A stretch of 64,000 bases of DNA, taken from Desulfobacterales bacterium. GTDB lineage: Bacteria > Desulfobacterota > Desulfobacteria > Desulfobacterales > UBA2245. Where the stretch lies: the NCBI GenBank assembly GCA_040771865.1, contig JAXGZF010000003.1, positions 248,001-312,000 of the forward strand, read 5' to 3'. The stretch's first letter is position 1. Each line of letters begins with the position of its first letter. The notes under the pieces were generated by a model that was not told where the DNA came from, ran no database searches, and saw nothing but the letters and a program-made list of their open reading frames with translations. Below, in pieces: positions 2,987-45,488 of this stretch. The position numbers and the translations under genes are program-made.

Positions 2987-4750
2987 TCAGAACAGGCCAA
3001 AGACCTTTCCGGTTTTTGTGTCCACATCGATCCGCCGAAACGCCGGGTTGGATCCGGTACCGGGCATCAGGCTGATATCCCAGGCACAGGGGCACAAGAA
3101 ACGGGCTCCGGAGTATACCAGCACATCTCGTATGGGAAGCTCCCATCCTTTTGGAACGCCCTTTAAACGGGGATCATGGCTCAGGCTCAGATGGGTCTTG
3201 ACCATGACCGTCGCAAAATCATCGTACCGGGGATCCTCTTCCAGGCGTCTGGCCTTGGCTGCGGCGTCCGGGCTCCAGGCAACCCCATCGGCGCCGTAAA
3301 TTTCTCTGGCAATCATGGCGACCCGGTCTCGCAGTTTCATCTCTTTTGGATAGAGAAAATGAAAACTCGGTTCTTCGCTGCAGGCGTCGATCACCGCGTC
3401 GGCCAGTTCCAGCGCTCCCTTGCCGCCTCTAAGCCAGTGATCCGAAACGGCAAATCGAGCCCCGGCCGCTTCGGCGGCTCTTCGTACCAGAGCGATCTCA
3501 TGAACGGTGTCCGTATAAAAACGGTTCAGGCATACCACCGGATTCATACCGGATTTCCGAATGGTGGCAATATGATGAATCATGTTTTCCAGACCCATTT
3601 CCACCAAGGCCAGATCCTCTTTCAGGTAAGCTTCTGGAAGGGACAGGCCCGGGGTGACCTTGGGGCCGCCGCCGTGCATCTTTAAGGCACGGATCGTGGT
3701 GGTGAGTACCGAAACATGGGGCTTCAGACCGCTGAGACGGCATTTGACGTTCCAGAATTTTTCAAACCCGATGTCTGCGGCAAATCCGCTTTCGGTCACA
3801 TGATAGTCAAACATCTTCAAGCCAATGCGGTCGGCTATGATCGAGGACTGGCCGATGGCGATATTGGCAAAGGGCCCGGCATGAACCATGCACGGCTGGT
3901 ATTCCGCGGTGCACATCAGCGTGGGATTGATGGTCTTGCGCATCCAGGCGGTCATGGCGCCGCCCACTTCCAAGTCGCCGGTGGTTACTGGATTGCCGCT
4001 GCGATCAAAGGCCACGGTGATTTTATCCATGCGCTTTCTCAGGTCTTCCAGATCACGGGCAATGGAAAGGATTGCCATGCATTCAGAGGCTGGCGCAATA
4101 TCAAAACGAGACTGCATGGTAAACCCGTCATGGCGGCCGCCCATGCCGATCACGATATTTCGAAGCGCCTGGGCACAGAAGTCGATTACCCAGCCCATCT
4201 CGATGCGGGTCGGGTCGATGTTCAGCCGCCGCATGCCCGTCAGTCGATCGAGCTGTTCATCGTTGTAGTTGCGTTCGTGCTGCATGCGGGCGGTCATGGC
4301 CACCATGGCCAGATTGTGGGCGTTCATGATGTCATTGATGTCGTTGGTCAGTCCCAGGGAAAAATCCGTCATGGGAATCAGCAGCGCGTTGCCGCCGCCG
4401 GCCGCCGTGCCCTTCACGTTCATGGTGGGCCCCCCCGAGGGCTGGCGCAGGGCACCTCCCACCTTTTTCCCCCGCTTGCCCAGCCCCTCCATAAGCCCAA
4501 GGGAAGTGGTGGTTTTTCCCTCGCCCAGCGGCGTTGGAGTGATCGCGGTCACCTCGATGTATTTTCCATTGGGCCTGTCCCTGAGACGATCAATGATTTT
4601 CATGAAATCCAGCTTGCAGAGCCTTCCCATGGGAAGTACCTCGTCTTTTTGAAGTCCCAGATTCTTTCGCCACTGATCTGGCATGGGCATGTGTTCTTCG
4701 GCCGCCTCGGAGATCCGCCAGTCTTCCATTTCAAGAGGATTGTATGCCAT
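2987..4750 (-). CDS. fhs: Formate--tetrahydrofolate ligase
   Basis: [57 protein letters not shown]. Confidence 0.95.
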
Positions 4751-4994
4751 TGTATGATTTCCTGGTTCTGTTTGGTTTAAATTTTATTAAATTCAGATCG
4801 TTATCACGACAGGAAGACTTTTGACAAGAAGTTTTGCGGCCCGGAAAAAAGAAAACGTGTTGTGGCAATGATTTTGTTGAATATGCATAACACGCCGATG
4901 TCGACGCGATGAGTGCCTGAACATGCAACCGACTCATTCGCTTTGCAGGCTTTAATCCCGATTGCTGGGACTATTCGATTTCCAATCAAGCGAT

Positions 4995-5030
4995 AAAAAA
5001 AGACTAACCGACCTGAGTCGATTAGTCTTT
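4995..5030 (-). terminator. Intrinsic terminator
   Basis: Minus strand AAAGACTAATCGAC-TCAG-GTCGGTTAGTCTTT: 14-bp stem with one G-U, running into a T tract. Confidence 0.8.
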
Positions 5031-5062
5031 AAGGAAGAGAAAAAGATGAAATTTACGGTTGA
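4995..5062 (-). ncRNA. Candidate sigma54-dependent small RNA (~68 nt)
   Basis: Bounded by a -24/-12 promoter (5074-5087) and an intrinsic terminator (4995-5030). Contains the pyrimidine-rich tract UUUCAUCUUUUUCUCUUCCUU. Confidence 0.55.
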
Positions 5063-5071
5063 CTATTTTTA

Positions 5072-5089
5072 AAGCAAATGGAATGCCAA
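5072..5089 (-). promoter_or_regulatory. Sigma54 (-24/-12) promoter
   Basis: Minus strand TTGGCATTCCATTTGCTT: exact GG-N10-GC spacing with TGGCA and TTGC flanks. AT-rich tract immediately upstream (5100-5160). Confidence 0.7.
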
Positions 5090-5212
5090 AATTCAATTTT
5101 TACGCGATATTTAAATTTATTTTATAACCTATTAATATTTATTAAAATTTTTCAATATCGCACTGCTGAGGATTTCCGGAAGCAGATATTTTTGCACAAA
5201 AACCTTGCCGAA

Positions 5213-5310
5213 AAGTTCATATTTTTAAACTTCAAATCCCTGGCGAATTTCTAATTATCTGTATTTAAAGACTTTTATTGCAATTCCGGAAAGTTCAATA
5301 TTTTGAACTT
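5213..5310. promoter_or_regulatory. Two related palindromes, putative activator binding sites
   Basis: AAGTTCAATATTTTGAACTT at 5291-5310 (perfect 8-bp arms) and AAGTTCATATTTTTAAACTT at 5213-5232. Confidence 0.5.
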
Positions 5311-5567
5311 GTGGCCATTATTCTTGAACTTGATAAATTCAATATACTTTTCGAGCGGCCGAAGCGAAAATAAAAGCTTGTGAAGAAGCCAAGAGACAAA
5401 TGCGGTTACCGCTCCGCCGCAGGGGGTGAAGCGCATTGAATGGTCGCCAAGACCCTGAGACAGCGGGTGCTCTCTGACCGGATTTCCATGTGCAAATGCG
5501 TTCGATGGCGCCACTCCACAAAGTTCATGTTGAAAATCATTGAAGTTTTCTCTCTGGCGAACAAATG

Positions 5568-5600
5568 AAGAGGGTGTTGAGATAAACTCAATACCCTCTT
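5568..5600 (-). terminator. Hairpin downstream of tRNA-Leu
   Basis: AAGAGGGTGTTGAG-ATAAA-CTCAATACCCTCTT inverted repeat. Confidence 0.65.
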
Positions 5601-5610
5601 TGAATATCGG

Positions 5611-5697
5611 TGGTGCCGAAGGCCGGACTTGAACCGGCACGGGCGTAGCCCACTACCCCCTCAAGATAGCGTGTCTACCAAGTTCCACCACTTCGGC
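5611..5697 (-). tRNA. tRNA-Leu(GAG)
   Basis: GCCGAAG...CTTCGGC-ACCA acceptor stem, anticodon arm CTATC-TTGAGGG-GGTAG, long variable arm, GTTCAAGTC T-loop. Sits directly downstream of secG. Confidence 0.95.
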
Positions 5698-5706
5698 ACA
5701 GACGCA

Positions 5707-6075
5707 TTATTTTTGGTCTGCGGGCTGAGCAGGCGTCTCGTGTGTTTTGGAGGTCTGATCAGCGGTTGCCGGCATTCCCGTTTCGGTGTCGGGCGCCGTC
5801 TGGGTTATGGGTGCCTTGGCATTTTCCATGACCGATTGCCTTGTCCTGTCGCTCGATATATAGGCAAGCGTCAGGGATGTCAGCATGAATACAATTGCCG
5901 CCACGGTAGTTGCTTTACTCAAAAAGGTCGAGGCACCGGTGCTGCCGAAAAGCGTCTGACTGGACCCGCCGCCAAAGGCGGCACCCATATCGGCCGCTTT
6001 TCCGGTTTGCAGCAGGACAATTAAAATCAGGGCCACACAGACAATCACATGTATTATAACCAGCACAGCTGACAT
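5707..6075 (-). CDS. secG: Preprotein translocase subunit SecG
   Basis: LIVLLQTGKAADMGAAFGGGSSQTLFGS, two TM segments, tpiA-secG-tRNA-Leu order. Confidence 0.95.
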   Translation of the reverse strand: MSAVLVIIHVIVCVALILIVLLQTGKAADMGAAFGGGSSQTLFGSTGASTFLSKATTVAAIVFMLTSLTLAYISSDRTRQSVMENAKAPITQTAPDTETGMPATADQTSKTHETPAQPADQK

Positions 6076-6087
6076 TGTATTTTTCTA

Positions 6088-6849
6088 TTATTTTTCAAAT
6101 TGTATAATCTGGCTGAAAACTTCTGCTTCCAGGCTCGCACCGCCCACCAGCGCACCGTCCACATCCGGCATTCCCATAAGCTCCTTGATATTGCCGGGTT
6201 TGACGCTACCTCCATATAGTATTCTTATGGAATTGGCAAGCGGATTTAAAAAAACCTCTTCCATAAGCCCGCGCAGGAACTGGTGCACTTCCTGGGCCTG
6301 CGCGCTGGTCGCGGTTTTTCCGGTACCTATGGCCCAGACGGGTTCATAGGCAATCACAAGCGACCGAAGCTCTTCCGACGAAAAACCTTTTAAGCCGAAT
6401 TGGATTTGTTTGTCAAGCACGGAAAAAGTCTCTCCGGCATTCCGCTGCTGATCACTTTCGCCTACGCACAGAATAGGAATCAGCTGATGGAACAAGGCGG
6501 CCTGAATTTTTTTATTGACAGTTTCATTGGTTTCTCCGAAATACTGGCGTCTTTCGGAATGCCCGATGATCACATACCGGCATCCGAGATCCTTTAGCAT
6601 TACAGGTGAGATTTCGCCTGTGTAAGCGCCCTTTGATTCCCAGAACATGTTCTGAGCGCCCAGAGCTATCCTGCTGTTTTTGAGGGCGTCGGCTGTTTGG
6701 GACAAAGCCGTAAATGCGGGTGCGATCATAATATCCACACCATCGACGTCTTTTACTCTTTGTACCAGTTCGATGGCGGTTTGAAAGGCCTCAGGACCGG
6801 TTTTGAACATCTTCCAGTTTCCGGCGATCAGCGGCGTGCGGTTTTTCAT
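6088..6849 (-). CDS. tpiA: Triosephosphate isomerase
   Basis: IAGNWKM, IGHSERR, AYEPVWAIGTGK, LVGGASL. Start moved to the ATG of MKNRTP (6849). Confidence 0.95.
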   Translation of the reverse strand: MKNRTPLIAGNWKMFKTGPEAFQTAIELVQRVKDVDGVDIMIAPAFTALSQTADALKNSRIALGAQNMFWESKGAYTGEISPVMLKDLGCRYVIIGHSERRQYFGETNETVNKKIQAALFHQLIPILCVGESDQQRNAGETFSVLDKQIQFGLKGFSSEELRSLVIAYEPVWAIGTGKTATSAQAQEVHQFLRGLMEEVFLNPLANSIRILYGGSVKPGNIKELMGMPDVDGALVGGASLEAEVFSQIIQFEK

Positions 6850-7001
6850 GGCATCCAGTTCCTTTGATGTTTTGCGGTTAAGATGAACGGCTGTGCGTTT
6901 GACCGTGGCTTTTCGCTTCTTGAGAAAACTTGATCTTGGGCTCGGATAAAATACGCAACCGTTCACTCCGGCGGCCTGATTGTTTTTCTGTTTCGGGCTC
7001 G

Positions 7002-8006
7002 TTAAAGCTGAGCTCCGATCATGGCCGCCATTTCCACCATCCGGTTTGAATAGCCGGTTTCATTGTCGTACCAGGACAGCACCTTGACCATGTTGCCGGA
7101 TACATGGGTGGTCTGGGCGTCGACAATGGACGAAAGGGGGCAACCGTTAAAATCCACGGACACCAGTGGGAGCTCGTTGAATCCAAGAATGCCGGCCAGA
7201 GGGCCCTGTGCAGCCGATTTGAGGGCGTCGTTGACATCCGTGACGGTGACGCCGGATTTTTCAACCGTGGCTACAAAATCCACGATCGAAACATTGGGAG
7301 TTGGAACCCGGATGGCCAGGCCGTTGAGTTTTCCGGAAAGCTCCGGCAACACGAGGGCGACTGCCCTGGCGGCGCCGGTCGTTGTCGGCACCATGGAAAG
7401 CGCTGCGGCACGGGCTCTTCTAAGGTCCTTGTGCGGAAAATCCAGAAGCCGCTGGTCACCGGTGTAGGCATGGACTGTGGTCATCAGGCCGTATCGGATG
7501 CCGAAATTTTCGAGCAGCACCTTTGCCACCGGAGCCAGACAGTTGGTGGTGCAGGATGCATTGGAGATGATGTGATGCTGCTTGGGTTTGTACTGGGATG
7601 AGTTGACTCCCATGACGATGGTGATATCAGGATCTTTGGCGGGCGCCGAGATGATGACCTTGCGGGCGCCTGCGGAAAGATGTTTTGATGCGCTATCCCG
7701 GCCTGTAAAGAATCCTGTGCACTCCGCGACAACGTCCACGCCATGGCTTTTCCAGTCCAGGCTGTCTGGATCCTTAATCGATGTGACGGCGATGCTGCGA
7801 CCGTCGACTTCAATGCTGCCTTCACCTGCATGAACCGGGCAATTCAGCTTTCCGTGAACGGAGTCGTAAGCCAACAGATGCGCCATGACTGCCGGATCAG
7901 ACAGATCATTGATGGCGACGACTTCAACTTCGGGATGGGCCATGGCGGCGCGAAATACAAGCCGGCCGATTCTTCCAAAACCGTTGATTCCAATTTTGAT
8001 GCTCAT
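7002..8006 (-). CDS. gap: Type I glyceraldehyde-3-phosphate dehydrogenase
   Basis: GINGFGRIGR, SNASCTTNCL, SWYDNE. GGAGG RBS precedes the ATG at 8006. Confidence 0.95.
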   Translation of the reverse strand: MSIKIGINGFGRIGRLVFRAAMAHPEVEVVAINDLSDPAVMAHLLAYDSVHGKLNCPVHAGEGSIEVDGRSIAVTSIKDPDSLDWKSHGVDVVAECTGFFTGRDSASKHLSAGARKVIISAPAKDPDITIVMGVNSSQYKPKQHHIISNASCTTNCLAPVAKVLLENFGIRYGLMTTVHAYTGDQRLLDFPHKDLRRARAAALSMVPTTTGAARAVALVLPELSGKLNGLAIRVPTPNVSIVDFVATVEKSGVTVTDVNDALKSAAQGPLAGILGFNELPLVSVDFNGCPLSSIVDAQTTHVSGNMVKVLSWYDNETGYSNRMVEMAAMIGAQL

Positions 8007-8166
8007 AAAACCTCCTTTGGGGCGCCATAGATTAATAAGGCACAGCATTGATGCGCGCCGTAAGCATGTACAGCATTTTACCGCAGGGGAAAACATCCTG
8101 CATCACGTCACGGCATTGAAAACGGCCATGATCATGCTGCGGAAAACCGAAGATTTCTTCAGATGC

Positions 8167-8583
8167 CTATTTGCTTTTCTTGTTGCCCTTAAGAATTCTG
8201 CTTGCCAGAGAGATGCTCTTTTTGCCGTAATCTTCAACACACTGGGCCAGTTCTCCGACTTCCATGTTCCTTCGAGCGCTTTCAGCCTTGATTAAAACGG
8301 GAAGATTGATGCCTGAGAGAACCTCTACCCTGCTTTCTTCGAGAAAAGAATAGCTCAAATTCGATGGCGTTCCTCCGAACATGTCGGTCAGAATCAATAT
8401 GCCTTTTTTCTTGTCGACTTTCTTGATGCCTTCCATGATTTTGGCCCGCAGTTTGTCGGCATTTTCCTTCAGATCAATAGAAACAGCCGTGACGCCTTCC
8501 GGTCGATGGCCGAGAATAAATTCTGTGGCCTCGATGAGTGCTTGTCCCAGCTGACAGTGTGTTACGATTACAATACCAATCAT
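8167..8583 (-). CDS. PTS mannose/fructose-type EIIA component
   Basis: MIGIVIVTH, LTDMFGGTPSN, GINLP. Confidence 0.85.
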   Translation of the reverse strand: MIGIVIVTHCQLGQALIEATEFILGHRPEGVTAVSIDLKENADKLRAKIMEGIKKVDKKKGILILTDMFGGTPSNLSYSFLEESRVEVLSGINLPVLIKAESARRNMEVGELAQCVEDYGKKSISLASRILKGNKKSK

Positions 8584-8659
8584 GGTACTCCTTGTTCGCA
8601 GATCGTGTTGCGCCTTGGCGATTGAATTGAAAGAGGCTTTTCATGGGAACCCTTGGCTC

Positions 8660-9523
8660 TCACTGGTCGATGTCCCGGTGGCTGATTTTAACACATCGTT
8701 GCTTCTGAAAGATATGATCAAAAACAGCCTCTGCTATGGCAACCGATCGATGGCGTCCACCGGTACAACCAACAGCAATGGTCAGGTATGCCTTGCCTTC
8801 CTTTTCATGCAATGGAATAAGATAGTCAAGCAGATCCAGATATTTGTCAAGAAATATGAGTGTTTCCTCGTGATTCATCAGGTATTGTTTGACCCGCGGC
8901 TCTTTTCCGCTGAGTTCTTTTAATTCGGCAATAAAATACGGGTTGGGCAGGAATCGGACGTCCATGATCAGATTCGACTCATGGGGAATGCCGAACTTGA
9001 ACCCGAAGGAAAGGACGCTGATGGTCATGGGGGTGAACTGCTTGCTCTTCTGCGCAATTTCGAAAATAATCGATTTCAATTGATGGACATTATAGCGCGA
9101 TGTATCGATGATTTTATCGGCAACGCTTCTAAGCGCGAGGAGTTGATTTATTTCAGCCTGAATGCTTTCGGAAAGGCCCTGATGCCTGGAAAGGGGATGG
9201 TGCCGTCGGGTCTGGCTGTAACGCTGAACCAGAATTTCCCTGTCGGACTCAAGAAACAGAATCTGGTAATGATATCCATGTTCTTTCAGCCACTGAAAAA
9301 TCGAGGAGTATCCGGCTATAAAACTTTTTTCCCGCAAATCCATGACAAAAGCCAGACCGGAGATTTCGGAAGGACTTTGAATGGGAATTTCCAGGAACTT
9401 GGGAAGCAGCACCACAGGCATATTGTCGACGCAGTAATAACCCGCGTCTTCAAAAGCCGCCAGCGCCGTGCTTTTCCCAGAGCCGGAAAGGCCCGTGATG
9501 ATTGTTATGCTGAGATGCTTCAC
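8660..9523 (-). CDS. rapZ: RNase adapter RapZ
   Basis: TGLSGSGKS, CVDNMP, SFGFKFG, DVRFLPNPYF, GCTGGRHRSV. Confidence 0.92.
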   Translation of the reverse strand: MKHLSITIITGLSGSGKSTALAAFEDAGYYCVDNMPVVLLPKFLEIPIQSPSEISGLAFVMDLREKSFIAGYSSIFQWLKEHGYHYQILFLESDREILVQRYSQTRRHHPLSRHQGLSESIQAEINQLLALRSVADKIIDTSRYNVHQLKSIIFEIAQKSKQFTPMTISVLSFGFKFGIPHESNLIMDVRFLPNPYFIAELKELSGKEPRVKQYLMNHEETLIFLDKYLDLLDYLIPLHEKEGKAYLTIAVGCTGGRHRSVAIAEAVFDHIFQKQRCVKISHRDIDQ

Positions 9524-9575
9524 CCGGAATGTCCGTAATGAGACGCTTTAAAGCGTTTTTCGATCCGCCTTTCAA

Positions 9576-10034
9576 TCAGAATTCATCGTCATCATCTTGA
9601 ATGATATCGTAAACTTCCTCTTTGCTTCGAGCGACTATCAGACGTTCCTTGAAAGGGTCATTTTTCAGAATTCTGGAAATGCGCGCCAGAAGTTTCAGAT
9701 GGTCCCCCGCAGAATTTTCAGGAGTGAGCAACAAAAAGAAGATATGGGTGGGTTTTCCATCCATGGAATCAAAATTTACGCCGTTTCGGCTCAAGCCGAA
9801 TCCCAGGATCAGAGAGTTCAGGCCTTTGACCTTTCCGTGAGGAATTCCGATTCCTCCGCCGATCCCTGTACTGCCGAGTCTTTCCCTTTCCATGAGAACT
9901 TCGACGAGATTTTGATGGCGGATGCCGGAAATCCGGGAGATCGGCGCGGCAAGTTCTTCAAGAATCCCCTTCTTTTCCTGAGCCTCAAGGTCGATTAGAA
10001 TCGCATCCCGAGGTAAAACGTCTAAAATTTTCAT
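9576..10034 (-). CDS. ptsN: PTS EIIA(Ntr)-like protein
   Basis: ERERLGSTGIGGGIGIPHGK, HLKLLARISR; position in the rpoN operon. Confidence 0.88.
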   Translation of the reverse strand: MKILDVLPRDAILIDLEAQEKKGILEELAAPISRISGIRHQNLVEVLMERERLGSTGIGGGIGIPHGKVKGLNSLILGFGLSRNGVNFDSMDGKPTHIFFLLLTPENSAGDHLKLLARISRILKNDPFKERLIVARSKEEVYDIIQDDDDEF

Positions 10035-10095
10035 TTCAAGTTCACCGGGGGCGCGGACGGCGGCACTGCAGCCTCCGGCACTCCATAAAGTGGCA

Positions 10096-10629
10096 TCAAG
10101 CCATGGGTTCGATCAATCCGTAATGTCCGTCTTTGCGGCGGTAGATCACATTGACCTGATCGGTCCGGGAGTTGGTGAAAACGAGAAAATTATTATTCAC
10201 CAGATCCATCTGCATTACGGCCTCGTCAACATCCATGGGTTTGTACTCGATACTTTGAACCATGATCTGACGATCGCTCGCATCTTCGGGCAGATTTACG
10301 GGGCCTTCCGCCATCCGTTCCAGACCGCTTTTGATACCCCCTCTTCGGTCTCTGGTTTTCTGCTTATTTTTTTTGATTTGCTTTTCCAGTTTATCCAATA
10401 CCATGTCAATCGCTGAATACATGTCGCTGGTTTCTTCTTTGCCGACAATATTGAGCCGGTCGCCGATGATGTTGATTTCGGCAATATGACGGAATTTTTC
10501 GACGGAAAGTACGACATTGGCTTCTGCGGGGTTATCAAGGAGTCTGTCGAAGCGATCCAGTTTTTCCCCGACGTAAGATTTCAAAGTTTCGGAGGGGTCA
10601 AGGTTTTTAAATGTTACAGACGTCTGCAT
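10096..10629 (-). CDS. hpf: Ribosome hibernation factor (long HPF/RaiA)
   Basis: DMYSAID, KLEKQIKK, KPMDVDEAVMQM, YRRKDGHYGLIE. Confidence 0.92.
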   Translation of the reverse strand: MQTSVTFKNLDPSETLKSYVGEKLDRFDRLLDNPAEANVVLSVEKFRHIAEINIIGDRLNIVGKEETSDMYSAIDMVLDKLEKQIKKNKQKTRDRRGGIKSGLERMAEGPVNLPEDASDRQIMVQSIEYKPMDVDEAVMQMDLVNNNFLVFTNSRTDQVNVIYRRKDGHYGLIEPMA

Positions 10630-35896: not shown

Positions 35897-36142
35897 ATGA
35901 ATCTGTGGACGGCGGCTCTTCTGGTTTTTGCCATCAATCTGCCGTTTGGATTCTGGCGCGCCGGAACCCGAAAACTTTCCATGGCCTGGTTTTTAGCAGT
36001 TCACATTCCGGTTCCCTTGGTTATTGGAATTCGTTATTTTTCCGAAATCGGGTGGCAGCTGAGTTCATATCCCATTTTAATTGCCGCTTTTTTTGGAGGG
36101 CAGTTTTTCGGAGGAAAGATCAGGAATAGAAGCGGATCTTGA
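35897..36142 (+). CDS. Small membrane protein
   Basis: GAGGAG RBS; INLPFGFWRA...WFLAVHIPVP; three hydrophobic segments. Confidence 0.7.
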   Translation: MNLWTAALLVFAINLPFGFWRAGTRKLSMAWFLAVHIPVPLVIGIRYFSEIGWQLSSYPILIAAFFGGQFFGGKIRNRSGS

Positions 36143-36254
36143 ATGGGAAAATGGTCTGAGCTGTTCGAAGGAGGCTTTTCAGGGATCCGTATTTTGAAGG
36201 ATTTTGTTTTTAGGCATGTTTTATAAAAATCACACATTAAACCAAAGGGGCGCC

Positions 36255-36593
36255 ATGTATACGGTTAAAGCAACCGATGTTCAGGAAGTCGAGCGGCTGA
36301 ATGCCAGAGTGAGGCTGGTTGTCACTCGAAACACCTTTCCGGGGCTTGAAGCGGCCAGTCAGGGCATGCTGTCGCTGGATCCGGGAGTTGCCATGAAGGA
36401 CCATGTTCACGAAAAAAGCATCGAGATATTTTATCCGGTTTCCGGAAAAGCGGTTCTGGTCATCGATGGAAAAGAATACCTCATGGAACCCGGAATTGCG
36501 GCGTGCGTGCCCAAGGGGGTCGGGCACTATCTTCGAAACGATTCTCCGAATACGGCATTTCAGACCATCATTACGCACGTGCCGCATTTATAG
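36255..36593 (+). CDS. Cupin domain protein
   Basis: HVHEKSIEIFY and PKGVGH cupin motifs. Confidence 0.8.
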   Translation: MYTVKATDVQEVERLNARVRLVVTRNTFPGLEAASQGMLSLDPGVAMKDHVHEKSIEIFYPVSGKAVLVIDGKEYLMEPGIAACVPKGVGHYLRNDSPNTAFQTIITHVPHL

Positions 36594-36608
36594 AGGCCGC
36601 TTTATTTT

Positions 36609-38660
36609 TCAAGAAATTCCGGTGTGAAGCGAGGTTTCGCCGGGCAGGGTCCCGGGTATCAGGACTTTTTGAACGGCTTCGGAAATGCGGGCGCGGGTTA
36701 ATGGCTTGGTCAATATTTCATGAATGCCGACCGATTCCGCCGCGCTTTCGGACAAGATATCGCTGTAGCCCGTGCACAGAATGATCGGTATGCTCCGATG
36801 GATCTTTCGGATTTCCGCTGCAAAATCGAGGCCGCTGATATGCGGCATGGTCATGTCGGTGATGATAAGGTCGAATTTGTCGGGGTTTTCCCGAAACATA
36901 TTCAGGGCTCTGTGAACGCTTGTTTCAGCAACCACCTCATATTCCAGGCTTTCCAGCAGGTCATGGCCCACGGCGGCGAGTATGGCTTCGTCGTCGACCA
37001 GAAGGATTTTCTGGTTTTTTATCTTTGACGGAGTTATGGAGACGCTCTGCCCGCATTCCACCAGTGGAGCATCGACCTCCATGACGGGAAAATAGACCTC
37101 GAACACGGTTCCTTCGCCCGGACTGCTGGATACAAGGATCACGCCGCCATGGTTTTTGATGATGCCGTGAACAACCGAGAGCCCCAATCCTGTACCTTCG
37201 CCGGTGGGCTTGGTACTGAAAAACGGGTCAAAGATCCGGTCGATGATTTCCGGCTGTATTCCGTGTCCGGCATCTTCCACGGTCAGTTTCTGATATTTTC
37301 CGGGTTGGAAATCCGGATTCAGGGACGCTTTCTTCGCATTGATTGTCACATCCTCCAGGCTGACTTTCAGCAGCCCTCCTTTTTCTTTCATGGCATAGGC
37401 CGCATTGACGCACAGATTCATGATCACCTGATGAATATGGGTCGGATCTGTCATCACCGGAGACAGGTTGGAAGCGATATTCTGGCGGATTTCAACGGAG
37501 CTGGGAATCGATGCGCGCAGCATTTTCAGGGCTTCTTTAATGATGATGGACAGTTTGTAGGGTTGAGGCTCTCCGGGAGCCTGTCGGCTGAAGGTCAGGA
37601 TTTGATTGACGAGGTCCTTTGCGCGCAGACTGGCTTTAAAAACCTCTTTCAGCCTTTTCTGCTGGCCACTTTCTTTCGGTGCTTCGAGCATTGCCAGTTC
37701 GGTATACCCCATGATGGCGCTGAGAATGTTGTTAAAATCATGGGCAATTCCGCCGGCCATGGTCCCGATGGCCTCCATTTTCTGAACGAGATGCAGCTGC
37801 TTTGACAGGTATTGATTTTCGGTTTCTCTGATTTTCAGGGATTCGGCCATCTGGTTGAAGGCTTGCGCGAGTTTTCCGATCTCATCGACGGATTCGACGG
37901 GAACGGTTTTCACCTCCCCGCCGGCGCCGATCAATTTGACCCCTTCGGTCAGTTTCTTGAGCGGCCGCGATATCCGTTTCGAGATCAGGAAAATCATGGG
38001 GGAGATAAGGACCAGAAAGATCAAGCCGATGAATATGCCGGCTGCCAGCAGTTCGTTCAGCTGCCGGGTCAGATTGGCTTTTGTCATTGATACCCGCACG
38101 TACCCGATGACGTGATCCATCGATTCGGGTCCTGAAATATCCGGAAAGGAGGTTTCCTGCTCCATATCGAAGATTTCTCCCGAAAGAACCGGAGCAAAGA
38201 AAATAAAGGATCTTGAAGCGTTACGAAAGAACGGCAATTCGGACTGGAATGCTTCCGGGGAAAGGGTGGCCTGATCCGGTTCCGTTTTTCCGGAATCGGT
38301 TTGATTGGAATCGAATGAAGCGCTTTTCAGGTCCTTCAGCAGTTTCCCCTGACGGTTGTATATCGAAACCGCATAAATATCGGGCTGCTCCATTATTCCT
38401 TCTCCAAGGGCGGTCAGCAGCGTTTCATTTTCCGAAAATACACCGATTTTGGAACTGTGGGCCAGAATCTGTGATATCAGGAGCCCTCTCTGGGTGAGAT
38501 GCAGCGTCAGAGCATTGCGCTGGTATTGAAAGAAAAAAAACGTAAAGGCTGCAACCAGTAGGAAAATGCAGACGGTGAAGATCATGAAAATCCTCAGCCC
38601 AAAACTTTCCCGCGGCTGTTGAATGAAATTCAATTTCAATGGTATTGGTTCCTTATTCAA
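36609..38660 (-). CDS. Membrane hybrid sensor histidine kinase (2 TM, periplasmic domain, HAMP, HisKA, HATPase, REC)
   Basis: [13 protein letters not shown] (HAMP), [39 protein letters not shown]...ITDMTMP...KP. Confidence 0.93.
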
Positions 38661-39564
38661 CCATAATTACTTCGTTTAAAATTTTGCCCTCCAGTTGAAT
38701 GCCCAGTTTGGCTGCGACCTTTGGATTGACTGAAATCAGCGGGTTTCTGGCCTCGGCTCTGGGTATGGATTGAACCGGCGTTCCATTCAGAATTCTCTGC
38801 GCCATTTCGCCGGCCTGCAGTCCCATGTCATAAGGGTCGGCACTGATCGAGATCAGTGCGCCCAGTTTCAGATACTTGTCCGAAAAAGTCAGAATTGGTA
38901 TTTTGTTTTCAATTGAAAACAATATCAGAAATTCAACGGTTTTCGGCGTGACGACGGTCAGATCCGGAATCATCCAGAATACATCAACCTGATTTTTGAA
39001 GTTTTTCAGAAGATCGGGGACCTGGTTTGAGCTGTACGCCGGAGCGGACCTGAGCTGAAGATTCAGCACTACGGCGGCGGATTCGGCTTTCTGCCGCAAC
39101 ATGCCGGTTTGGGAGGGGTCGTATAAAAGCCCGACGGATTGAACGGATGGAATGATTTTTAAAAGCGCTGTCATCTGTTTTTCCGGCGGGATGACCATAT
39201 CCACGCCCGTGATGTTGGTCGCCCCGTTTACAATGTTTTCCGGATGAAGCGCCATGACGTAAACAACGGGGATATTGCGGATATTTTTGACCGCCGTCAA
39301 CGCGTTGGTGCCGATGGCCAGAATCAGATCCGCATTTGCAAACCGAAGCTCCTCCTGGATGTCCGGATTCGGAAGATCGGCCAGCGCGATGTGCGTAAAC
39401 GACTGCCGGAAGAGGCTTTGAGCACCCTGGACGGCCGTTTCGTAGGGGGGAACGTTCAGGGAATAAACCGCCGCAATCTGGGATCCCGCCCACGCCGGAT
39501 CCGATCCGGACACCGCCAGACGGATGATCAGGCCGATGATAACGATGATTCTTCCGAGCGTCAT
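38653..39564 (-). CDS. Periplasmic ABC-type substrate-binding protein with no adjacent transporter
   Basis: Signal peptide (AWA), LILAIGT, IPVVY, NITGVDM, VGLLYDP, GALISI, GLQAGEMAQRILNG, VNPKVAAKLGI. Overlaps the kinase start by 8 nt. Confidence 0.85.
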   Translation of the reverse strand: MTLGRIIVIIGLIIRLAVSGSDPAWAGSQIAAVYSLNVPPYETAVQGAQSLFRQSFTHIALADLPNPDIQEELRFANADLILAIGTNALTAVKNIRNIPVVYVMALHPENIVNGATNITGVDMVIPPEKQMTALLKIIPSVQSVGLLYDPSQTGMLRQKAESAAVVLNLQLRSAPAYSSNQVPDLLKNFKNQVDVFWMIPDLTVVTPKTVEFLILFSIENKIPILTFSDKYLKLGALISISADPYDMGLQAGEMAQRILNGTPVQSIPRAEARNPLISVNPKVAAKLGIQLEGKILNEVIMVE

Positions 39565-39714
39565 ATCTTAATAAAGTTCCGGAACCCGTGGGGCTTCCGG
39601 ATAGGGTAACTTATATATTCTTGAATGTTGATTAAAAAACTGGTAGAAGCTCCTAACATATTTTTCTTTTATGCGAAATATTATTTTTTCATCAAATACT
39701 AGACGGGTCTGAGC

Positions 39715-41631
39715 ATGAAAGCAAAAGTTTTCATCCTTTCACTTTTCTTCTGCCTGACGCTGATTCGGTCTGCATCCGCCGAGTTTTCAGAGGAGATGCG
39801 GATTCTGAAATTGTTTTACGAGGAAAAGGATCTGGTTGTTTCCTCAACCCGCCATCCCAAGCATATTTTCGATTCCGCTGAAAACATAACGGTGATTACC
39901 GCCAGGGAAATCGAGGCCATGAACGCCCATACCGTGGGCGAGGTGCTTTCCCGTATGCCGGGGCTGTTTGTAAACTCCAACCGTGATTTCGGCGCCGCCA
40001 CCCTGATCAACGCCCAGGGGGTGAGCGCCCGGCACGTGCTGATCCTGCTCGACGGGATTCCCTGGAATTTCAATTTCAACGAGACCGCCGAAACCAACAC
40101 CATTCCCATCGGCATCGTCGAGCGCATCGAGGTGGTCAAGGGTCCGGCATCTTCGGTCTGGGGGCCGTATCTGGGCGGGGCGGTCAACATCATTACCAAG
40201 GATGTGGGAAGCAGCGGCATCCCATCCGGCAGCATCAGCGCCTCATACGGCAACAGCAGAAGCGGCGACTACCGCGCCCAGGTCAAGGGGACGGCCGGAA
40301 TGACGGGATATTATCTGTATGCCGGGCGCCAGGTCTCGGACGGACTCGTATCCGGGCGAAGCTTTGACAATGACGGTTTTTTTGCCAAGATTTATGCGCC
40401 GGTGACCGATGCATTATCGCTTGGCGCCAGCCTGGGTTACAGTGATCCGGATGCGGATTCGGGCGATTACCCGGCCTACGGCTTTTCAAGCAATTACTGG
40501 TCTCGGGCCTTGTGGGGCAAGGGCTATCTTCGGGGGGAAATAACGGATTCGCTTTCCCTTCACGCCTCGGCCTATAAGCTGATGCGAAAAAATGTTTCGG
40601 AAAATCTGGAGCTCGGCCTTAACGGGTCTTCGGGAGACCTGCTGCTGTCCACAGACAGCGAGGAGGACTTCAGCGGCGCCAATATCGAGTTCTCCTGGAA
40701 ACCCGCAAACCATTCCGTGGTGGCCGGGGGGGAATATATCCGGGGGGATTTTGATACGCGCCTCAGAAGCGGGGAATACTACCAGTTTCTGGGCGCTCCT
40801 CATCTCTCTCTGGATCAGAGCGCTGAAACCCGACAGAGTTTCTATATCAACGATACGATTCTGCTGGGGCGGTTTTCGCTGACCCCCGGTCTTCGCTATG
40901 ATCACAGCAGCCTGGGGGACGGACATCTGAGTCCGAGTTTCGGGGTGACCTGCAAACTTCCGGAAAACACCCTGCTCAGAGCCTCGATCGTCCGGGGCTT
41001 TTCCCTCCCCCCCTTATCGCTTAAAAAAACCGGCGGGTTGTTTCTGGATCCCAACCCGGATCTGGATTCGGAGAGCATCTGGTCCTATCAGGTTGGAATG
41101 GAAACCGCTCAGAAATATTTCTGGGTCAAGGCGACGCTTTTTTATCATGAAATCGAAGACGGTCTTGTCAAAATCTATTATGGTGGCGGACCTCCGGCCT
41201 ATGATGACATTTATGTGAACGGGAGTTCAGCTGACCAGGAAGGCTTTGAAATCGAGTGGGAAACGGTTCCGGTCTGGAATCTCTCGTTAAAGGCCGGATT
41301 TTCCTATGTCCATTACAGCCCTGCAGATATTGAATCAGGTGCGGAAAATGCCTATACGGCCGATATCTGCCTGAAATATGATGACAACCAGGGGCTCAAC
41401 CTTCAGCTGATGGGATATTTGACAGACTGGGGACTGCCTGCAGGGCGGCAAAGCGAGGACGGCCGGTTTCTCTGGGATCTGGTCTTTTCCAGGCGCCTGT
41501 CCGGTTTTGGACGAATATCGCCCGAGGTCTTCGGTGCGGTTCATAATCTTTTGAATCAGGATCAATACCTCTTTCCAGAACAAAAATACCCGGATCGCTG
41601 GATGGAAGCCGGAATCCGTATTCGTTTTTAA
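39715..41631 (+). CDS. TonB-dependent outer-membrane receptor
   Basis: Signal peptide (ASA), plug motifs ITVITAREIE, LLDGIP, VERIEVVKGPASSVWG...GGAVNIITK; GLRYD; NPDLDSE; C-terminal GIRIRF. Confidence 0.93.
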   Translation: MKAKVFILSLFFCLTLIRSASAEFSEEMRILKLFYEEKDLVVSSTRHPKHIFDSAENITVITAREIEAMNAHTVGEVLSRMPGLFVNSNRDFGAATLINAQGVSARHVLILLDGIPWNFNFNETAETNTIPIGIVERIEVVKGPASSVWGPYLGGAVNIITKDVGSSGIPSGSISASYGNSRSGDYRAQVKGTAGMTGYYLYAGRQVSDGLVSGRSFDNDGFFAKIYAPVTDALSLGASLGYSDPDADSGDYPAYGFSSNYWSRALWGKGYLRGEITDSLSLHASAYKLMRKNVSENLELGLNGSSGDLLLSTDSEEDFSGANIEFSWKPANHSVVAGGEYIRGDFDTRLRSGEYYQFLGAPHLSLDQSAETRQSFYINDTILLGRFSLTPGLRYDHSSLGDGHLSPSFGVTCKLPENTLLRASIVRGFSLPPLSLKKTGGLFLDPNPDLDSESIWSYQVGMETAQKYFWVKATLFYHEIEDGLVKIYYGGGPPAYDDIYVNGSSADQEGFEIEWETVPVWNLSLKAGFSYVHYSPADIESGAENAYTADICLKYDDNQGLNLQLMGYLTDWGLPAGRQSEDGRFLWDLVFSRRLSGFGRISPEVFGAVHNLLNQDQYLFPEQKYPDRWMEAGIRIRF

Positions 41632-41763
41632 GCCACTCGGCGGAGAATTCTCTACAGCAGGAGGGTTTTCGTTCAAATCGATCGTTTTGGCTTGCATTTT
41701 TTCATGCCTTTGCTAACCTGCCTGTAAATTCTGAAGCAGACCGGGCTGAAAAAGGAGATATTT

Positions 41764-41874
41764 ATGAAAAAAAATCAAAAGCGGAAAAAAATAGTGGTGG
41801 TGGATGCGGGTGTCAGCTTGAAAAAGTCATCGTACCTTATCTGTTGCTACTTACCTTTATTTCCCGTGCGATAA
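41764..41874 (+). CDS. Putative RiPP precursor peptide (geopeptide-like), 36 aa: MKKNQKRKKIVVVDAGVSLKKSSYLICCYLPLFPVR
   Basis: Not in the ORF track (under 60 aa). AAAGGAGA RBS at 41751-41758, basic leader with KKIVVVDAG, Cys-Cys core, own terminator, directly upstream of the rSAM/SPASM gene. Confidence 0.85.
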   Translation: MKKNQKRKKIVVVDAGVSLKKSSYLICCYLPLFPVR

Positions 41875-41908
41875 GGCCGTCGGATTCGTTTGATTTGAGC
41901 CCCAATTT

Positions 41909-41962
41909 TTCGGTTTCTTATACAGCGCCGATCGGGTTGTGTAAGAGACCGAATTTTTTTTT
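41909..41962 (+). terminator. Hairpin/terminator between precursor and maturase
   Basis: TTCGGTTTCTTATACAGC-loop-GTTGTGTAAGAGACCGAA: 18-bp stem with three G-U pairs, then 9 T. Confidence 0.8.
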
Positions 41963-42054
41963 AAACTCCGATACGGCTTTTGCCTGTGGCAACATCTGAA
42001 TTCCGACGATGAACCTTATTTCAGCAGGCGGGCCATCCAAACAGTCGGACGGAT

Positions 42055-43356
42055 ATGAAACTTTCCCATTATCTGAAGATATTTGAATCCAGGGACAATC
42101 CGGACGAATGCATCGCATTTTCCACGAAGAGAGCCTCGATTGTTCAGCTTGCACGAGAAACCCTGAATGAGATCTCCTCCGGAGATCTTTGCCGGGAGGA
42201 TGCCGAGCTTCTTGCCCGACTTGAGATCATTGTTCCGAATGTGGAGGCCGAAAAAAAAGCGATGCTCGCCTTTGGCAGGACCTGGGGGCGGAGCAGCCCG
42301 GTGCTCAACATCGTGGCGATTCTGAATCTGGACTGCAATTTTGCCTGCCCGTATTGCTACGAGAATGGCATCAAGGGGGATTTCTACATGTCCCGGCAGA
42401 CGGCCGATGCGCTGATTGCGTTTGCCAAGCAGCGTTTCGATGCCGACAAGAAGATGCTGCTGGCGGATTTTCACGGCGGAGAACCCCTCCTGAGCCTGGC
42501 TCTGATCCGCCATATCTCCGGGGCGCTCAAACCCTTTGTGGAATCAAGAGGCGGAACTTATTCCATTACCCTGGTGACCAACGGGTCGCTGCTAAACCGG
42601 AAAACCGTGGAAGCGCTGAAAACCCTGGGGCTTGAAAGCGTCAAGATCACGCTGGACGGTCCCGCGGAGCTGCACAATTCAAGCCGTCCCTACAAGTCCG
42701 GCGCCGGTACCTTTGATATTATTATCAACCATATCAAGGAGATCTGCGATCTTGTCAAGGTCAATATCGGCGGAAACTTTGAAGAGGGTAATTATCGGCG
42801 GTTTCCCGAGCTTCTGGATGTGCTGATCGATGAAGGGCTGACTCCGGACAGGGTCGGCGTCGTCAAGTTCGATCCCATTACCGCGAGTAAACATCCGCCC
42901 GAAGCTATGGCGGTCTATCAGGGCGGCTGTGCCAGCATCAACGAACCCTGGCTGGTGGAGGCCGAGGCCTTTTTGCGGGAGGCGATTTTTACCCGCGGAT
43001 ACCGGACCGTCAAGCCTCAGCCCGCCTTCTGCATGGTGGAGTCGGAAAACTGTTTTACCGTCAACTGGGACGGCGGGATTTACAAATGTCCGGCGTTTGC
43101 GGGCAGGCGGCGATTTCAGATCGGGGACCTGAAATCCGGGGTTTGCAATGCTTTCGACCCATACCATGTCCGGCACTGGGAAAAAAACCAGGACTGCAGG
43201 AATTGCGAATATCTGCCCATGTGCTTCGGCGGATGCCGGTTTTTAAAATGGATCCGCGACGGCAGGATTGATGAGGTGGACTGCAAAAAGCCATACCTTG
43301 ATGCGGCCCTCGAAGGGCTGATACTGCAGGAGGTTCGATATCGCGATGGCCGGTAA
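42055..43356 (+). CDS. Radical SAM/SPASM peptide maturase (geopeptide-maturase-like)
   Basis: CNFACPYC, FHGGEPLL, VTNGSLL, ITLDGP; SPASM region C...GGIYKC...CRNCEYLPMCFGGC...C; ~80-aa N-terminal extension that may bind the leader. Confidence 0.9.
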   Translation: MKLSHYLKIFESRDNPDECIAFSTKRASIVQLARETLNEISSGDLCREDAELLARLEIIVPNVEAEKKAMLAFGRTWGRSSPVLNIVAILNLDCNFACPYCYENGIKGDFYMSRQTADALIAFAKQRFDADKKMLLADFHGGEPLLSLALIRHISGALKPFVESRGGTYSITLVTNGSLLNRKTVEALKTLGLESVKITLDGPAELHNSSRPYKSGAGTFDIIINHIKEICDLVKVNIGGNFEEGNYRRFPELLDVLIDEGLTPDRVGVVKFDPITASKHPPEAMAVYQGGCASINEPWLVEAEAFLREAIFTRGYRTVKPQPAFCMVESENCFTVNWDGGIYKCPAFAGRRRFQIGDLKSGVCNAFDPYHVRHWEKNQDCRNCEYLPMCFGGCRFLKWIRDGRIDEVDCKKPYLDAALEGLILQEVRYRDGR

Positions 43357-43376
43357 TCCACCGGTTGTCAATCTAT

Positions 43377-43520
43377 CAGGCTGTTGAAAAACTGCGTCTG
43401 AGGCCGCCATTCAGTGTTGCGCGGCTCTCGCCAATGCTCGCATATAGCTTGAATATGCTGCGCTTGTCGTATCGCCGCACGCCTTGCCTGACGGCCTGAT
43501 TCTTGTTTTTCAACACCCTA
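43377..43520. mobile_element. MITE-like repeat, copy 2 (144 bp)
   Basis: CAGGCTGTTGAAAAAC...GTTTTTCAACACCCTA, flanked by CTAT and TTAT (imperfect duplication). Confidence 0.85.
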
Positions 43521-45488
43521 TTATAGCAGCCCGATCTCCCAGTTCCATATTCCGGGACGTTTTTTCAGCTCCATGCTTTTCGGCGTTGATTCATCTAAAT
43601 GCACAAACAGTGTGTATCCGGCTTTTTGAAGCCCCGGCAGCTTGTCTCGAAGATCCAGCTTCCAGTTCGGATAAATCCAGAAATTGCCTCCCTCAGGACG
43701 GACCCAGGCCAGTTCTCTCTTCGGGCTTGAAAAAGGCGCCAGCGGTTTGAGACGGTCGGAAAGAACTCTGGATATGCACAGGGGCCAGAAGCCTTCGATG
43801 ACGATTCCCAGAGGAAGGGGGCTGTGTTCGGGAAGCTCTAGAAAGTCTTTTGCGCTCAGTTCCGGGGAGACGATCGCTCCGGAAAATCCCAGGGATGCCA
43901 GGGCTTCGACGGCCAGCTCATTGGCGATGTTGCAGAAAGGTCCGGCCCAGAGATTCAAGCCCCTTTCACCCTCAAAAAAACCCGTCTGCCAGGGGGCGTT
44001 GAGTACGAAACGGCGAGCGCCAAGGCCAATCGCCTGCCGAATCATCGGCTGCAAAACAGGCTCGTCCTCAGCCCAGACCGCCGGAGACAGCCACCACCAG
44101 ATATTCGGAACTGATTTTTTCCCTGCCTGCCCAAGCATTTCTTCCGAAAGCCACAGACCGCAGGTCGACCTGGCGCCGTGCTTTTCAAGGCTTCGGCAGA
44201 CATTTAGGTTCATAGGTCTGGTGCGGCCTTTAAATCCGCGAGGAAGTTGAACGGATGCCGGAGCGTCGGGGACAGCGGCGGGAATCTGAAGCCTTGCATC
44301 CTGTTCGCGGATCAGCCGCTCCAGGGCCGGTTCCCGGCGGTCCACCAGAAAAACCGGCGTGCCTCTCGCGGGAACCGGTTTTTTGGAAAATTTCAGATGC
44401 AGACGGCCTTTTTTCGGCACATGCATGCCCACCCGGTATACCGCATGTCCGGGTTCATCCTCGTAGCCGATGCGAAGCACATCGCCGGGCAGAAGCGCCT
44501 CGCGGGGAATCAGGCAAGGGCTTTTCCCACTCCCCTGTATGTTTCCCATTAAAAGACCGGATCCGGTCTGGCGCTCGGTATCCACGGGATTCCAGAACCG
44601 CTGGGGCAAAAACCGGTAATGGGTTGACGGTCGGCCCAGGGCCTGGGCCAGAAGATCCATGGCCGATTTTTTCATCCGGCTGTCATCGCCGTGATCCCGA
44701 AGCATCTGATAGGCCTTGACCGTATAATAGACATAGTGCGGGCCTTTTTTCCGTCCTTCTATTTTCCATGCCCGAATCTGAGGTATCGGCAGGAGTGTTT
44801 TAACTAGAGTGTCCAGGCTCAGGTCCTGGCACGAAAAAAATCTTCGAATTCGGCCGTCCTGTTCATAGCGCCTGCGGCAGGGCTGAACGCACCGTCCCCT
44901 CAGGCCGCTTTTCCCTCCCAGATAGCTGCTCCAGTAGCATCGTCCGGAAATGCCGTAGCACAGGGCGCCGTGGACAAACACTTCAAGATCCAGCCCCGGC
45001 GGGCATGAGCCGGCCAGGACCTTGATTTCGTCGATGTTCAGCTCCCGGGGGATAACCACGCGCCGGACGCCCAGTGTTTTATGGATTGGACCGAGGGCTG
45101 CCGCAAATCCGGCATTGGCCAGGGTCGAGAGATGAATTTCTCCTGAAAAACCAAGCTGGCGGGCCAGAGATATCAGGGCAAGATCCTGAACGATCATGGC
45201 GTCCGGCCCGACGTTTTGTATAAGGCCCCGAACCAGGGATGCGGTCTGAGAAATTTCGTCGGAACGGATCAGCGAGTTGAAGGCGACATACACCCGTGCC
45301 TTTTGTTCATGGGCCAGCGCGGTCAGGCCCGAGAGTTCCTCGATCGTAAAATTGGGGGCTTCCATGCGGGCGGAAAATTGTTTCAGCCCGCAGTATACCG
45401 CATCCGCGCCGGCGGCCAGGGCGGCCAGAAACGCGGATTTGTTACCGGCGGGCGCCAGAATTTCCGGAACTGCGAACGGTTTCATCAT
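43521..45488 (-). CDS. Peptidase U32 family Fe-S protein (RlhA-like RNA hydroxylation)
   Basis: EILAPAG, GADAVYCG, FSAR, EVFVHGALCYGISGRC...RGRCVQPCRR, KIEGRKK. Confidence 0.85.
   Translation of the reverse strand: MMKPFAVPEILAPAGNKSAFLAALAAGADAVYCGLKQFSARMEAPNFTIEELSGLTALAHEQKARVYVAFNSLIRSDEISQTASLVRGLIQNVGPDAMIVQDLALISLARQLGFSGEIHLSTLANAGFAAALGPIHKTLGVRRVVIPRELNIDEIKVLAGSCPPGLDLEVFVHGALCYGISGRCYWSSYLGGKSGLRGRCVQPCRRRYEQDGRIRRFFSCQDLSLDTLVKTLLPIPQIRAWKIEGRKKGPHYVYYTVKAYQMLRDHGDDSRMKKSAMDLLAQALGRPSTHYRFLPQRFWNPVDTERQTGSGLLMGNIQGSGKSPCLIPREALLPGDVLRIGYEDEPGHAVYRVGMHVPKKGRLHLKFSKKPVPARGTPVFLVDRREPALERLIREQDARLQIPAAVPDAPASVQLPRGFKGRTRPMNLNVCRSLEKHGARSTCGLWLSEEMLGQAGKKSVPNIWWWLSPAVWAEDEPVLQPMIRQAIGLGARRFVLNAPWQTGFFEGERGLNLWAGPFCNIANELAVEALASLGFSGAIVSPELSAKDFLELPEHSPLPLGIVIEGFWPLCISRVLSDRLKPLAPFSSPKRELAWVRPEGGNFWIYPNWKLDLRDKLPGLQKAGYTLFVHLDESTPKSMELKKRPGIWNWEIGLL

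Follow-up and report, generated by a model that had tools for sequence, protein, structure and literature searches.

A conserved five-gene geopeptide locus in a Desulfobacterales bacterium unites a radical SAM maturase and its Cys-Cys precursor with a TonB-dependent receptor, a binding protein and a hybrid kinase, and is a candidate peptide-sensing circuit

Peptide pheromones are textbook biology of Gram-positive bacteria, and the Gram-negative outer membrane should exclude peptides of such size. Here we describe a block of five genes (36609-43356) in a 64,000-nucleotide stretch of a Desulfobacterales genome (assembly GCA_040771865.1, contig JAXGZF010000003.1, positions 248,001 to 312,000; this whole stretch is referred to as the window), which combines a short precursor peptide, a radical S-adenosylmethionine (SAM)/SPASM maturase, a TonB-dependent outer-membrane receptor, a binding protein and a hybrid sensor histidine kinase. 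The five open reading frames (ORFs) recognized in the initial annotation, together with their coordinates, all hold in the ORF list and translations of the window.

Transporter-less periplasmic binding proteins encoded next to a hybrid kinase are known from LuxP-LuxQ (autoinducer-2) and TorT-TorS. The binding protein of the window shares their broad fold class, and the LuxQ and TorS models match the core of the window's kinase weakly; however, the ligand of those systems is a small molecule for which no TonB receptor is needed, and both the binding-protein and the sensor-domain families differ. On the enzyme side, the closest described system is the NCBIfam geopeptide system (TIGR04280 and TIGR04229, 'hypoth_equivalog'): the window's enzyme passes the cut-off and, as in Geobacter-type loci, a short Cys-Cys peptide is encoded directly upstream, whereas this peptide misses the 22-position TIGR04229 model and its tail is of a class unlike that of Geobacter. 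With the maturases of sactipeptides and ranthipeptides (CteB, structures 5wgg and 5why; PapB; QhpD) the system shares a cysteine-bearing substrate, and the match to CteB spans the full length of the enzyme, N-terminal recognition domain and SPASM clusters included, but the identity of the two proteins is 18-19%. Methanobactin operons likewise provide a ribosomal peptide with a dedicated TonB importer and a periplasmic binding protein lacking a transporter partner in the operon (PMC7558416); in the window, by contrast, a radical SAM enzyme stands in the place of MbnBC (Pfam detects neither the MbnB nor the MbnC family in the five genes), the binding protein belongs to PF04392 and the regulator is a Cache kinase rather than a sigma/anti-sigma pair. 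Finally, Bacteroidales clusters for radical SAM-modified, ribosomally synthesized and post-translationally modified peptides (RaS-RiPPs; the Itf cluster with ItfF, and a Parabacteroides cluster with a two-component system) bring together a radical SAM enzyme, a precursor and a TonB transporter, although they carry a peptidase-ABC (ATP-binding cassette) exporter and other enzymes; the available text of these reports mentions no binding protein and assigns no role to the TonB transporter (PMC11002830, PMC9389541). The initial annotation named no described function for the five-gene arrangement, and we likewise found no paper on TIGR04280 or on the arrangement, in a search that did not cover most subscription journals, so that an earlier mention is possible. 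Nor did we find experimental work on the NCBIfam geopeptide family, the term 'geopeptide' leading in the literature only to the 'gageopeptide' of Bacillus.

Based on censuses in both directions, the five-gene arrangement is far from chance and the five genes very probably form one functional unit; gene identities, family membership, two-way linkage, joint diversification of maturase and receptor, doubling of entire sets and the exchange of sensor parts in a sister family are all directly observed. Among 401 genomes drawn evenly from the window's phylum, whose loci were searched with the window proteins and the proteins of seven other loci, plus Pfam where needed, 26 carry a total of 30 TIGR04280 genes above the cut-off. 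A receptor of the same clade adjoins the maturase gene in 28 of these 30 cases, the two misses being contigs of 2.8 and 4.1 kb, and a Cys-Cys-type precursor was found at 28/30 loci. A PF04392 binding protein is present at 24 (five misses are contig ends and one is locus L110), and a kinase gene stands beside it in 21 of those 24 (two misses are contig ends and one is locus L088). Thirteen further loci from a species-level collection have the same gene content, and in the six of them that were scanned by Pfam the flanks are completely different. The internal order and strand layout vary by clade while the content is constant. Loci of the window's clade have kinase and binding protein encoded leftward, and receptor, peptide and enzyme rightward; those of the Geobacter type have the receptor gene on the other strand, after the enzyme gene.

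PF04392 is too broad for a reverse census (at least 201 of the 401 genomes have it), and the receptor was used instead, with matches to the window receptor counted at E <= 1e-50. This search gave 39 receptor genes in 32 genomes. Thirty-two of them adjoin a maturase gene (29 of the geopeptide family and three of a sister family described below), five are so placed at contig ends that the enzyme gene would lie beyond the sequence (as seen in the fetched sequences for G315 and G125, and judged from coordinates for G211:C559, G308:C101 and G235), and two are informative exceptions, L125 and, in the window's own genome, L082. The receptor clade is almost confined to maturase loci. The initial annotation had made its reading depend on how often receptor, binding protein and kinase co-occur with peptide and radical SAM enzyme in other genomes, and the reading has withstood this comparison, since the linkage is near-complete in both directions.

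The unit is also multiplied as a whole. Four genomes with two maturases (G166, G255, G338 and G021) all have two receptors and two binding proteins, and three of the four have two kinases; in the exception, G255, a partial tblastn kinase match lies 570 nt from the binding-protein gene of locus L084, where gene calling found no kinase. In G166 the two sets are in tandem. Locus L125 encodes a receptor, a binding protein and a kinase (4560-10355) followed by a precursor (10444-10545), and has no maturase gene. Its precursor has a C-x-C core, and the first 14 residues match at 13 of 14 positions those of the precursor of L084 in the same genome. As the two leaders are nearly identical, the L084 enzyme could serve both precursors, and the maturase is probably shared in trans by the two loci; because L125 keeps a precursor without an enzyme, the sensor set follows the peptide and not the enzyme. 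The maturase and receptor trees contain the same major clades and have 18 of 42 splits in common (Mantel r 0.875, reached by none of 2000 permutations), an agreement which indicates co-inheritance as a unit and not co-adaptation, since kin are not independent.

A sister family of the maturase is found in 14 further genomes. These enzymes score 215-313 bits on TIGR04280, under the cut-off of 400, and none of the eight that were scanned reaches the cut-off of another NCBIfam model. Twelve sister loci were fetched: in eight, a dCache_1-HAMP kinase has as its neighbour a family-5 binding protein (SBP_bac_5, the OppA/MbnE class), seven have a receptor of the neighbouring clade, four peptides of the same Cys-Cys type and three a sigma-54 response regulator. 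The PF04392 and sCache_4 parts have thus given way to family-5 and dCache_1 parts, which are not homologous to them but fill the same function. We take this replacement by a peptide-binding family as the strongest single argument for the peptide as the ligand. In the sister loci L120 and L118, which come from one genus and count as one observation, a sigma-54-like -24/-12 element (TGGTAT, 5 nt, TTGCT) is located 44 nt upstream of the maturase start (L120:8816 and L118:10331); both loci also encode a sigma-54 regulator, and the element hints at a feedback loop.

The maturase of the window (433 residues; 42055-43356, forward strand) matches the NCBIfam model TIGR04280, 'geopeptide radical SAM maturase', at 515.7 bits (cut-off 400; E 1e-154) over model positions 1-428 of 428, which confirms the family membership that had initially been proposed. 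Other peptide-maturase models all score far under their cut-offs (PapB, 114.8 versus 340; SCIFF maturase, 86.6 versus 425), and the QhpD score is also under its cut-off. The translation contains the CX3CX2C motif CNFACPYC and the seven-cysteine SPASM motif CRNCEYLPMCFGGC, with a TIGR04085 SPASM match at residues 326-407; C94, C98, C101, C326, C345, C381, C384, C390, C394 and C410 are invariant in 35 maturase sequences. In the AlphaFold2 model (predicted local distance difference test score, pLDDT, 90.1), the N-terminal domain consists of three strands and three helices and looks like a peptide-recognition element. The best fold match is the thioether-forming CteB (5why/5wgg, TM 0.69), and 5wgg is also the best sequence match among solved structures (E 6.5e-18). 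By this likeness of the enzyme to CteB, the window peptide is a candidate member of the thioether class of RiPPs (sactipeptides and ranthipeptides), in which a Cys sulfur is bonded to the alpha, beta or gamma carbon of an acceptor residue. In three other genomes the maturase has an extra C-terminal domain of 270-300 residues (L096:9001-11178, L095:5019-7097 and L100:582-2786), which has no Pfam match and for which the protein-atlas leads are sub-threshold (<=0.85). This domain contains the motif RY[LI]DDFID, in which we presume a resemblance to the DDxxD of isoprenoid synthases, and it may perform a second modification such as prenylation.

The precursor gene (41764-41874, forward strand) is an ORF of 36 codons preceded by AAAGGAG, a good ribosome-binding (Shine-Dalgarno) site, and its product, MKKNQKRKKIVVVDAGVSLKKSSYLICCYLPLFPVR, can be divided into a basic N-terminus, the leader IVVVDAG, the Cys-Cys pair and the eight-residue tail YLPLFPVR. 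In an alignment of 45 peptides (that of the window and 44 encoded upstream of related enzymes), C28 is invariant, C27 and G16 are at least 90% conserved, the common leader type is x-[IL]-x-V-L-[DE]-x-G and the tails comprise ~8-12 residues. The tails from geopeptide loci are all different (41/41), that of the window being of the CC-x5-P-x-R class. The precursor ORF is 180 nt upstream of the maturase gene, and the interval contains a terminator-like hairpin (41909-41962, forward strand) with a 20-bp stem followed by nine U. Folding of 41872-41975 gives -36.5 kcal/mol (z -4.49) and none of 200 shuffles is as stable; a consensus terminator scan missed this hairpin. A hairpin between precursor and enzyme genes is the usual means of obtaining an excess of precursor transcript, and the present one is probably an attenuator which sets the precursor:enzyme ratio. 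In a related locus, L008, the precursor gene (8849-8947) is separated from the maturase gene by an inserted ORF of 254 residues (9053-9817), whose HFHGII motif is reminiscent of IS200/REP-associated transposases.

The receptor (638 residues; 39715-41631, forward strand) is made up of a signal peptide, a Plug domain (residues 53-151) and a barrel (297-555). The Plug starts at residue 53, right after the signal peptide, and Pfam finds no further domain; an N-terminal signalling extension, as in TonB-dependent transducers of the FecA type, was not detected. On the reverse strand, the PF04392 (ABC_sub_bind) binding protein (303 residues; 38653-39564; E 5e-34) has a signal-like N-terminal segment, and its gene overlaps the start of the kinase gene by 8 nt. 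This tight junction is general: the kinase start is at most 30 nt from the binding-protein stop in all 26 related loci in which both genes were called, and 19 of these junctions overlap. The window locus has no ABC permease or ATPase partner for the binding protein, and Pfam detects no substrate-binding-protein-dependent ABC importer in the conserved block of the window and six other loci. The AlphaFold2 model of the binding protein (pLDDT 92.9) has as its best folds 3lkv, 3lft (an L-Trp complex) and 6hnj/6hni. Co-folding of residues 28-303 with the precursor gave scores of 0.03 and 0.01 against a mark of 0.32, and speaks neither for nor against binding.

According to Pfam, the hybrid kinase (683 residues; 36609-38660, reverse strand) contains an sCache_4 domain (51-197) between two membrane segments, followed by HAMP, HisKA, HATPase_c and a receiver (552-664), and no HPt domain. 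At the gene level, the pair is thus of the LuxPQ/TorTS type: a secreted binding protein, no ABC partner and a kinase with a periplasmic domain. At L127:3179-4627 in G166, a PF04392-type geopeptide locus includes a sigma-54 response regulator convergent with the kinase gene, which would give this locus the transcription output that the window's locus lacks.

The genome of the window (3.0 Mb, 13 contigs) has one geopeptide locus and two further genes or gene sets of related make-up. A 1230-residue hybrid kinase (L081:4170-7862, G000:C9) has an N-terminal periplasmic PF04392 domain followed by three PAS domains, an architecture in which the binding-protein fold is apparently used directly as kinase input. 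The second is the exception L082 (2933-9782, G000:C3), with a sigma-54 response regulator, a TonB receptor, a dCache_1 kinase and a family-5 binding protein, which best match sister-type loci at 23-36% identity. No maturase gene is nearby and a pattern search for a peptide gene found none at L082; the set may serve to 'listen' to a peptide from another organism, or it may sense something different.

On balance, and with moderate confidence, we favour a loop in which a ribosomal peptide is made, exported, re-imported through the TonB receptor, captured by the binding protein and read by the kinase, the route from receptor to binding protein to kinase being the best-supported reading of the block. 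The N-terminal recognition domain of the maturase would bind the leader IVVVDAG, and the core around the Cys-Cys pair would be modified, most likely by thioether cross-links of the kind made by CteB, the nearest solved relative. The product would then be exported by a transporter encoded outside the locus and, being too large for porins, would re-enter the periplasm through the dedicated TonB-dependent receptor. There, the transporter-less PF04392 protein, translationally coupled to the kinase, would capture it, and the loaded binding protein would act on the sCache_4 domain and change the phosphorelay output. Since tail and receptor set are particular to each examined genome, a species-specific self-produced signal, serving autoinduction or kin sensing, is the most likely role. 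We infer the chemistry, the export, the import and the peptide binding and, above all, the biological role in quorum or kin sensing.

The machinery for crossing the membranes is partly accounted for elsewhere. As initially noted, a domain scan finds no exporter, protease, TonB/ExbD or separate response regulator in the window locus; three TonB_C and three ExbD matches are present elsewhere in the genome, and peptidase-C39 gives one weak match on a 1.5-kb contig. Transporters of the MFS_3 type ('transmembrane secretion effector', EntS-like) are encoded in two geopeptide loci of one genus (L102:10308-11891 and L103:3-1313) and in a sister locus (L113:1759-2964), whose transporter and maturase genes seem to share ~4 nt; the product could be exported by transporters of this kind.

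Several observations weigh against the proposed loop. Neither an exporter nor a leader protease is a conserved member of the block, tblastn finds no such MFS_3 exporter in the window's genome, and the window's locus encodes no transcription-factor output. The linkage also has true gaps: L110 has a receptor, a peptide and a maturase with no binding protein or kinase within ~9 kb, L088 has an aconitase gene instead of a kinase gene next to the binding protein, and four of the 12 sister loci are without receptor, binding protein and kinase. The counts themselves overstate independence, as kin share gene order, and the deep clade order differs between the maturase and receptor trees. The window peptide has no TIGR04229 match even at E 10 (cut-off 30 bits) and for this reason is not filed under that model, though it aligns at G16, C27 and C28; among six related peptides compared with TIGR04229, only that of L002 matched, at 11.1 bits. 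Lastly, those PF04392 relatives that have been solved all take free aromatic amino acids as ligands instead of peptides: three such proteins bind L-Trp, L-Tyr or L-Phe (PMC10443332, Table 1). By analogy, a small aromatic ligand is a possibility for the window's binding protein, as is recognition of an aromatic residue in the peptide tail, which holds Tyr and Phe.

Three other explanations can be set against the signalling loop. The modified peptide might carry a metal or act as a shared cofactor, in the manner of methanobactin or pyrroloquinoline quinone (PQQ); it would be released, load scarce metal in sulfidic habitats and return via the receptor to the binding protein, with acquisition as the purpose and the kinase doing no more than tuning production. 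Methanobactin operons indeed join a ribosomal peptide to the TonB transporter MbnT and the OppA-like MbnE (PMC7558416), and the sister loci use the same family-5 class of binding protein as MbnE. The two adjacent cysteines (C28 invariant, C27 at least 90% conserved) are moreover the sole conserved feature of the core, and the NCBIfam TonB families include the PQQ receptor PqqU, whose model the window receptor matches weakly. We nevertheless consider a carrier, though a serious rival, less likely than a signal: the binding protein has no conserved inner-membrane importer by it and is coupled instead to a kinase (26/26 loci), Pfam detects no MbnB/MbnC-type genes and no FecIR-type regulators in the block, the nearest enzymes consume cysteine thiols in thioethers, and the tails, which differ in 41/41 cases, offer no other conserved metal ligand.

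Somewhat less probable again is that receptor, binding protein and kinase respond to a cue from outside, such as an aromatic amino acid or a foreign product, and merely regulate a peptide that acts elsewhere, for instance as an antimicrobial. Two-component control of RiPP clusters is common, as for nisin with NisKR. The aromatic ligands of the solved PF04392 proteins (PMC10443332, Table 1) suit such a cue, and in Bacteroidales there are RaS-RiPP clusters that include a TonB receptor plus a two-component system and whose function is left unassigned in the available text (PMC9389541, PMC11002830). However, a simple common cue needs no separate receptor and binding protein for each peptide, as found in 4/4 two-maturase genomes, and would leave the near-restriction of the receptor clade to maturase neighbourhoods unexplained; L125 lacks a maturase yet retains peptide and sensor set, the binding protein of the sister family is of a peptide type, and no immunity gene is conserved in the loci scanned by Pfam. 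That the adjacency is inherited gene order without any functional link is most improbable. Many of the loci do come from related families, and kin share synteny, but the block persists between completely different flanks, its internal order and strands change between clades while its content stays, it is duplicated as a set and its sensor parts are replaced by analogous ones.

As to the setting of the locus, the flanking genes are housekeeping genes, as first annotated, with enolase, SurE and a cupin on the left and a U32 protein and a helicase on the right (Pfam/NCBIfam). The two divergent units are separated by a 150-bp promoter spacer (39565-39714), rightly described at the outset as AT-rich, with 35% G+C versus 52% for the window. 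In the leader region of the binding-protein/kinase operon, this spacer holds a repeat of TTCCGGAA, 10 nt and TTCCGGA at ~39577-39601, which is identical in the close relative L001 (locus 89% identical) and could be an operator. A promoter consensus scan gave no more sites than shuffled sequences, and a search for the sigma-54 -24/-12 pattern found none in the window's block or in L082. In a k-mer search of 15 spacers only A-rich words were shared, AAAAACTGGTA recurring in few loci, and an Rfam scan of 36000-44000 returned a chance long non-coding RNA match only.

In four metatranscriptome runs labelled anaerobic digester, contig pieces of 158-265 nt match parts of the block. Those from three runs have 0-1 differences and fall within the kinase, binding-protein, receptor and maturase genes; those from the fourth (X5) have 3-6 differences and fall within the receptor gene only. 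These contigs, which cannot show absence, cover neither the precursor gene nor the larger part of the maturase gene. The pieces weakly support transcription of the block, as such libraries can contain DNA. Just 3' of the maturase gene is an element of ~150 nt (43373-43523) with the terminal inverted sequences GTTGAAAAA and TTTTTCAAC. It has 91 blastn matches in the 3.0-Mb genome, mostly at 87-96% identity among the 60 matches listed, and a very high summed depth in the RNA-library contigs; there is no Rfam match to it, and a tRNA scan of 43300-43600 found none. It resembles a miniature repeat element.

A modified peptide that has a TonB gate and a periplasmic sensor to itself would be a concrete and testable answer to the exclusion of peptides by the outer membrane, and the gene set is found in iron and sulfate reducers of environmental importance, among them relatives of Geobacter that are genetically tractable. 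More broadly, and more tentatively than for the loop itself, diderm anaerobes of several orders may possess private, radical SAM cross-linked Cys-Cys pheromones, each with a matching TonB gate and a periplasmic binding protein-kinase readout, to which some genomes may add further sets, either of precursor and sensor, served by a borrowed maturase (L125), or of the sensor alone, perhaps to hear neighbours (L082). If the loop is real, it would provide a function for a RiPP family that has been named in databases and left unstudied, and for many transporter-less PF04392 binding proteins encoded beside kinases. Should the peptide be a metal carrier, the locus would define a new class of such carriers in anaerobes; should the private pheromones exist, they would represent the first Gram-negative route of peptide quorum sensing that depends on TonB-powered import.

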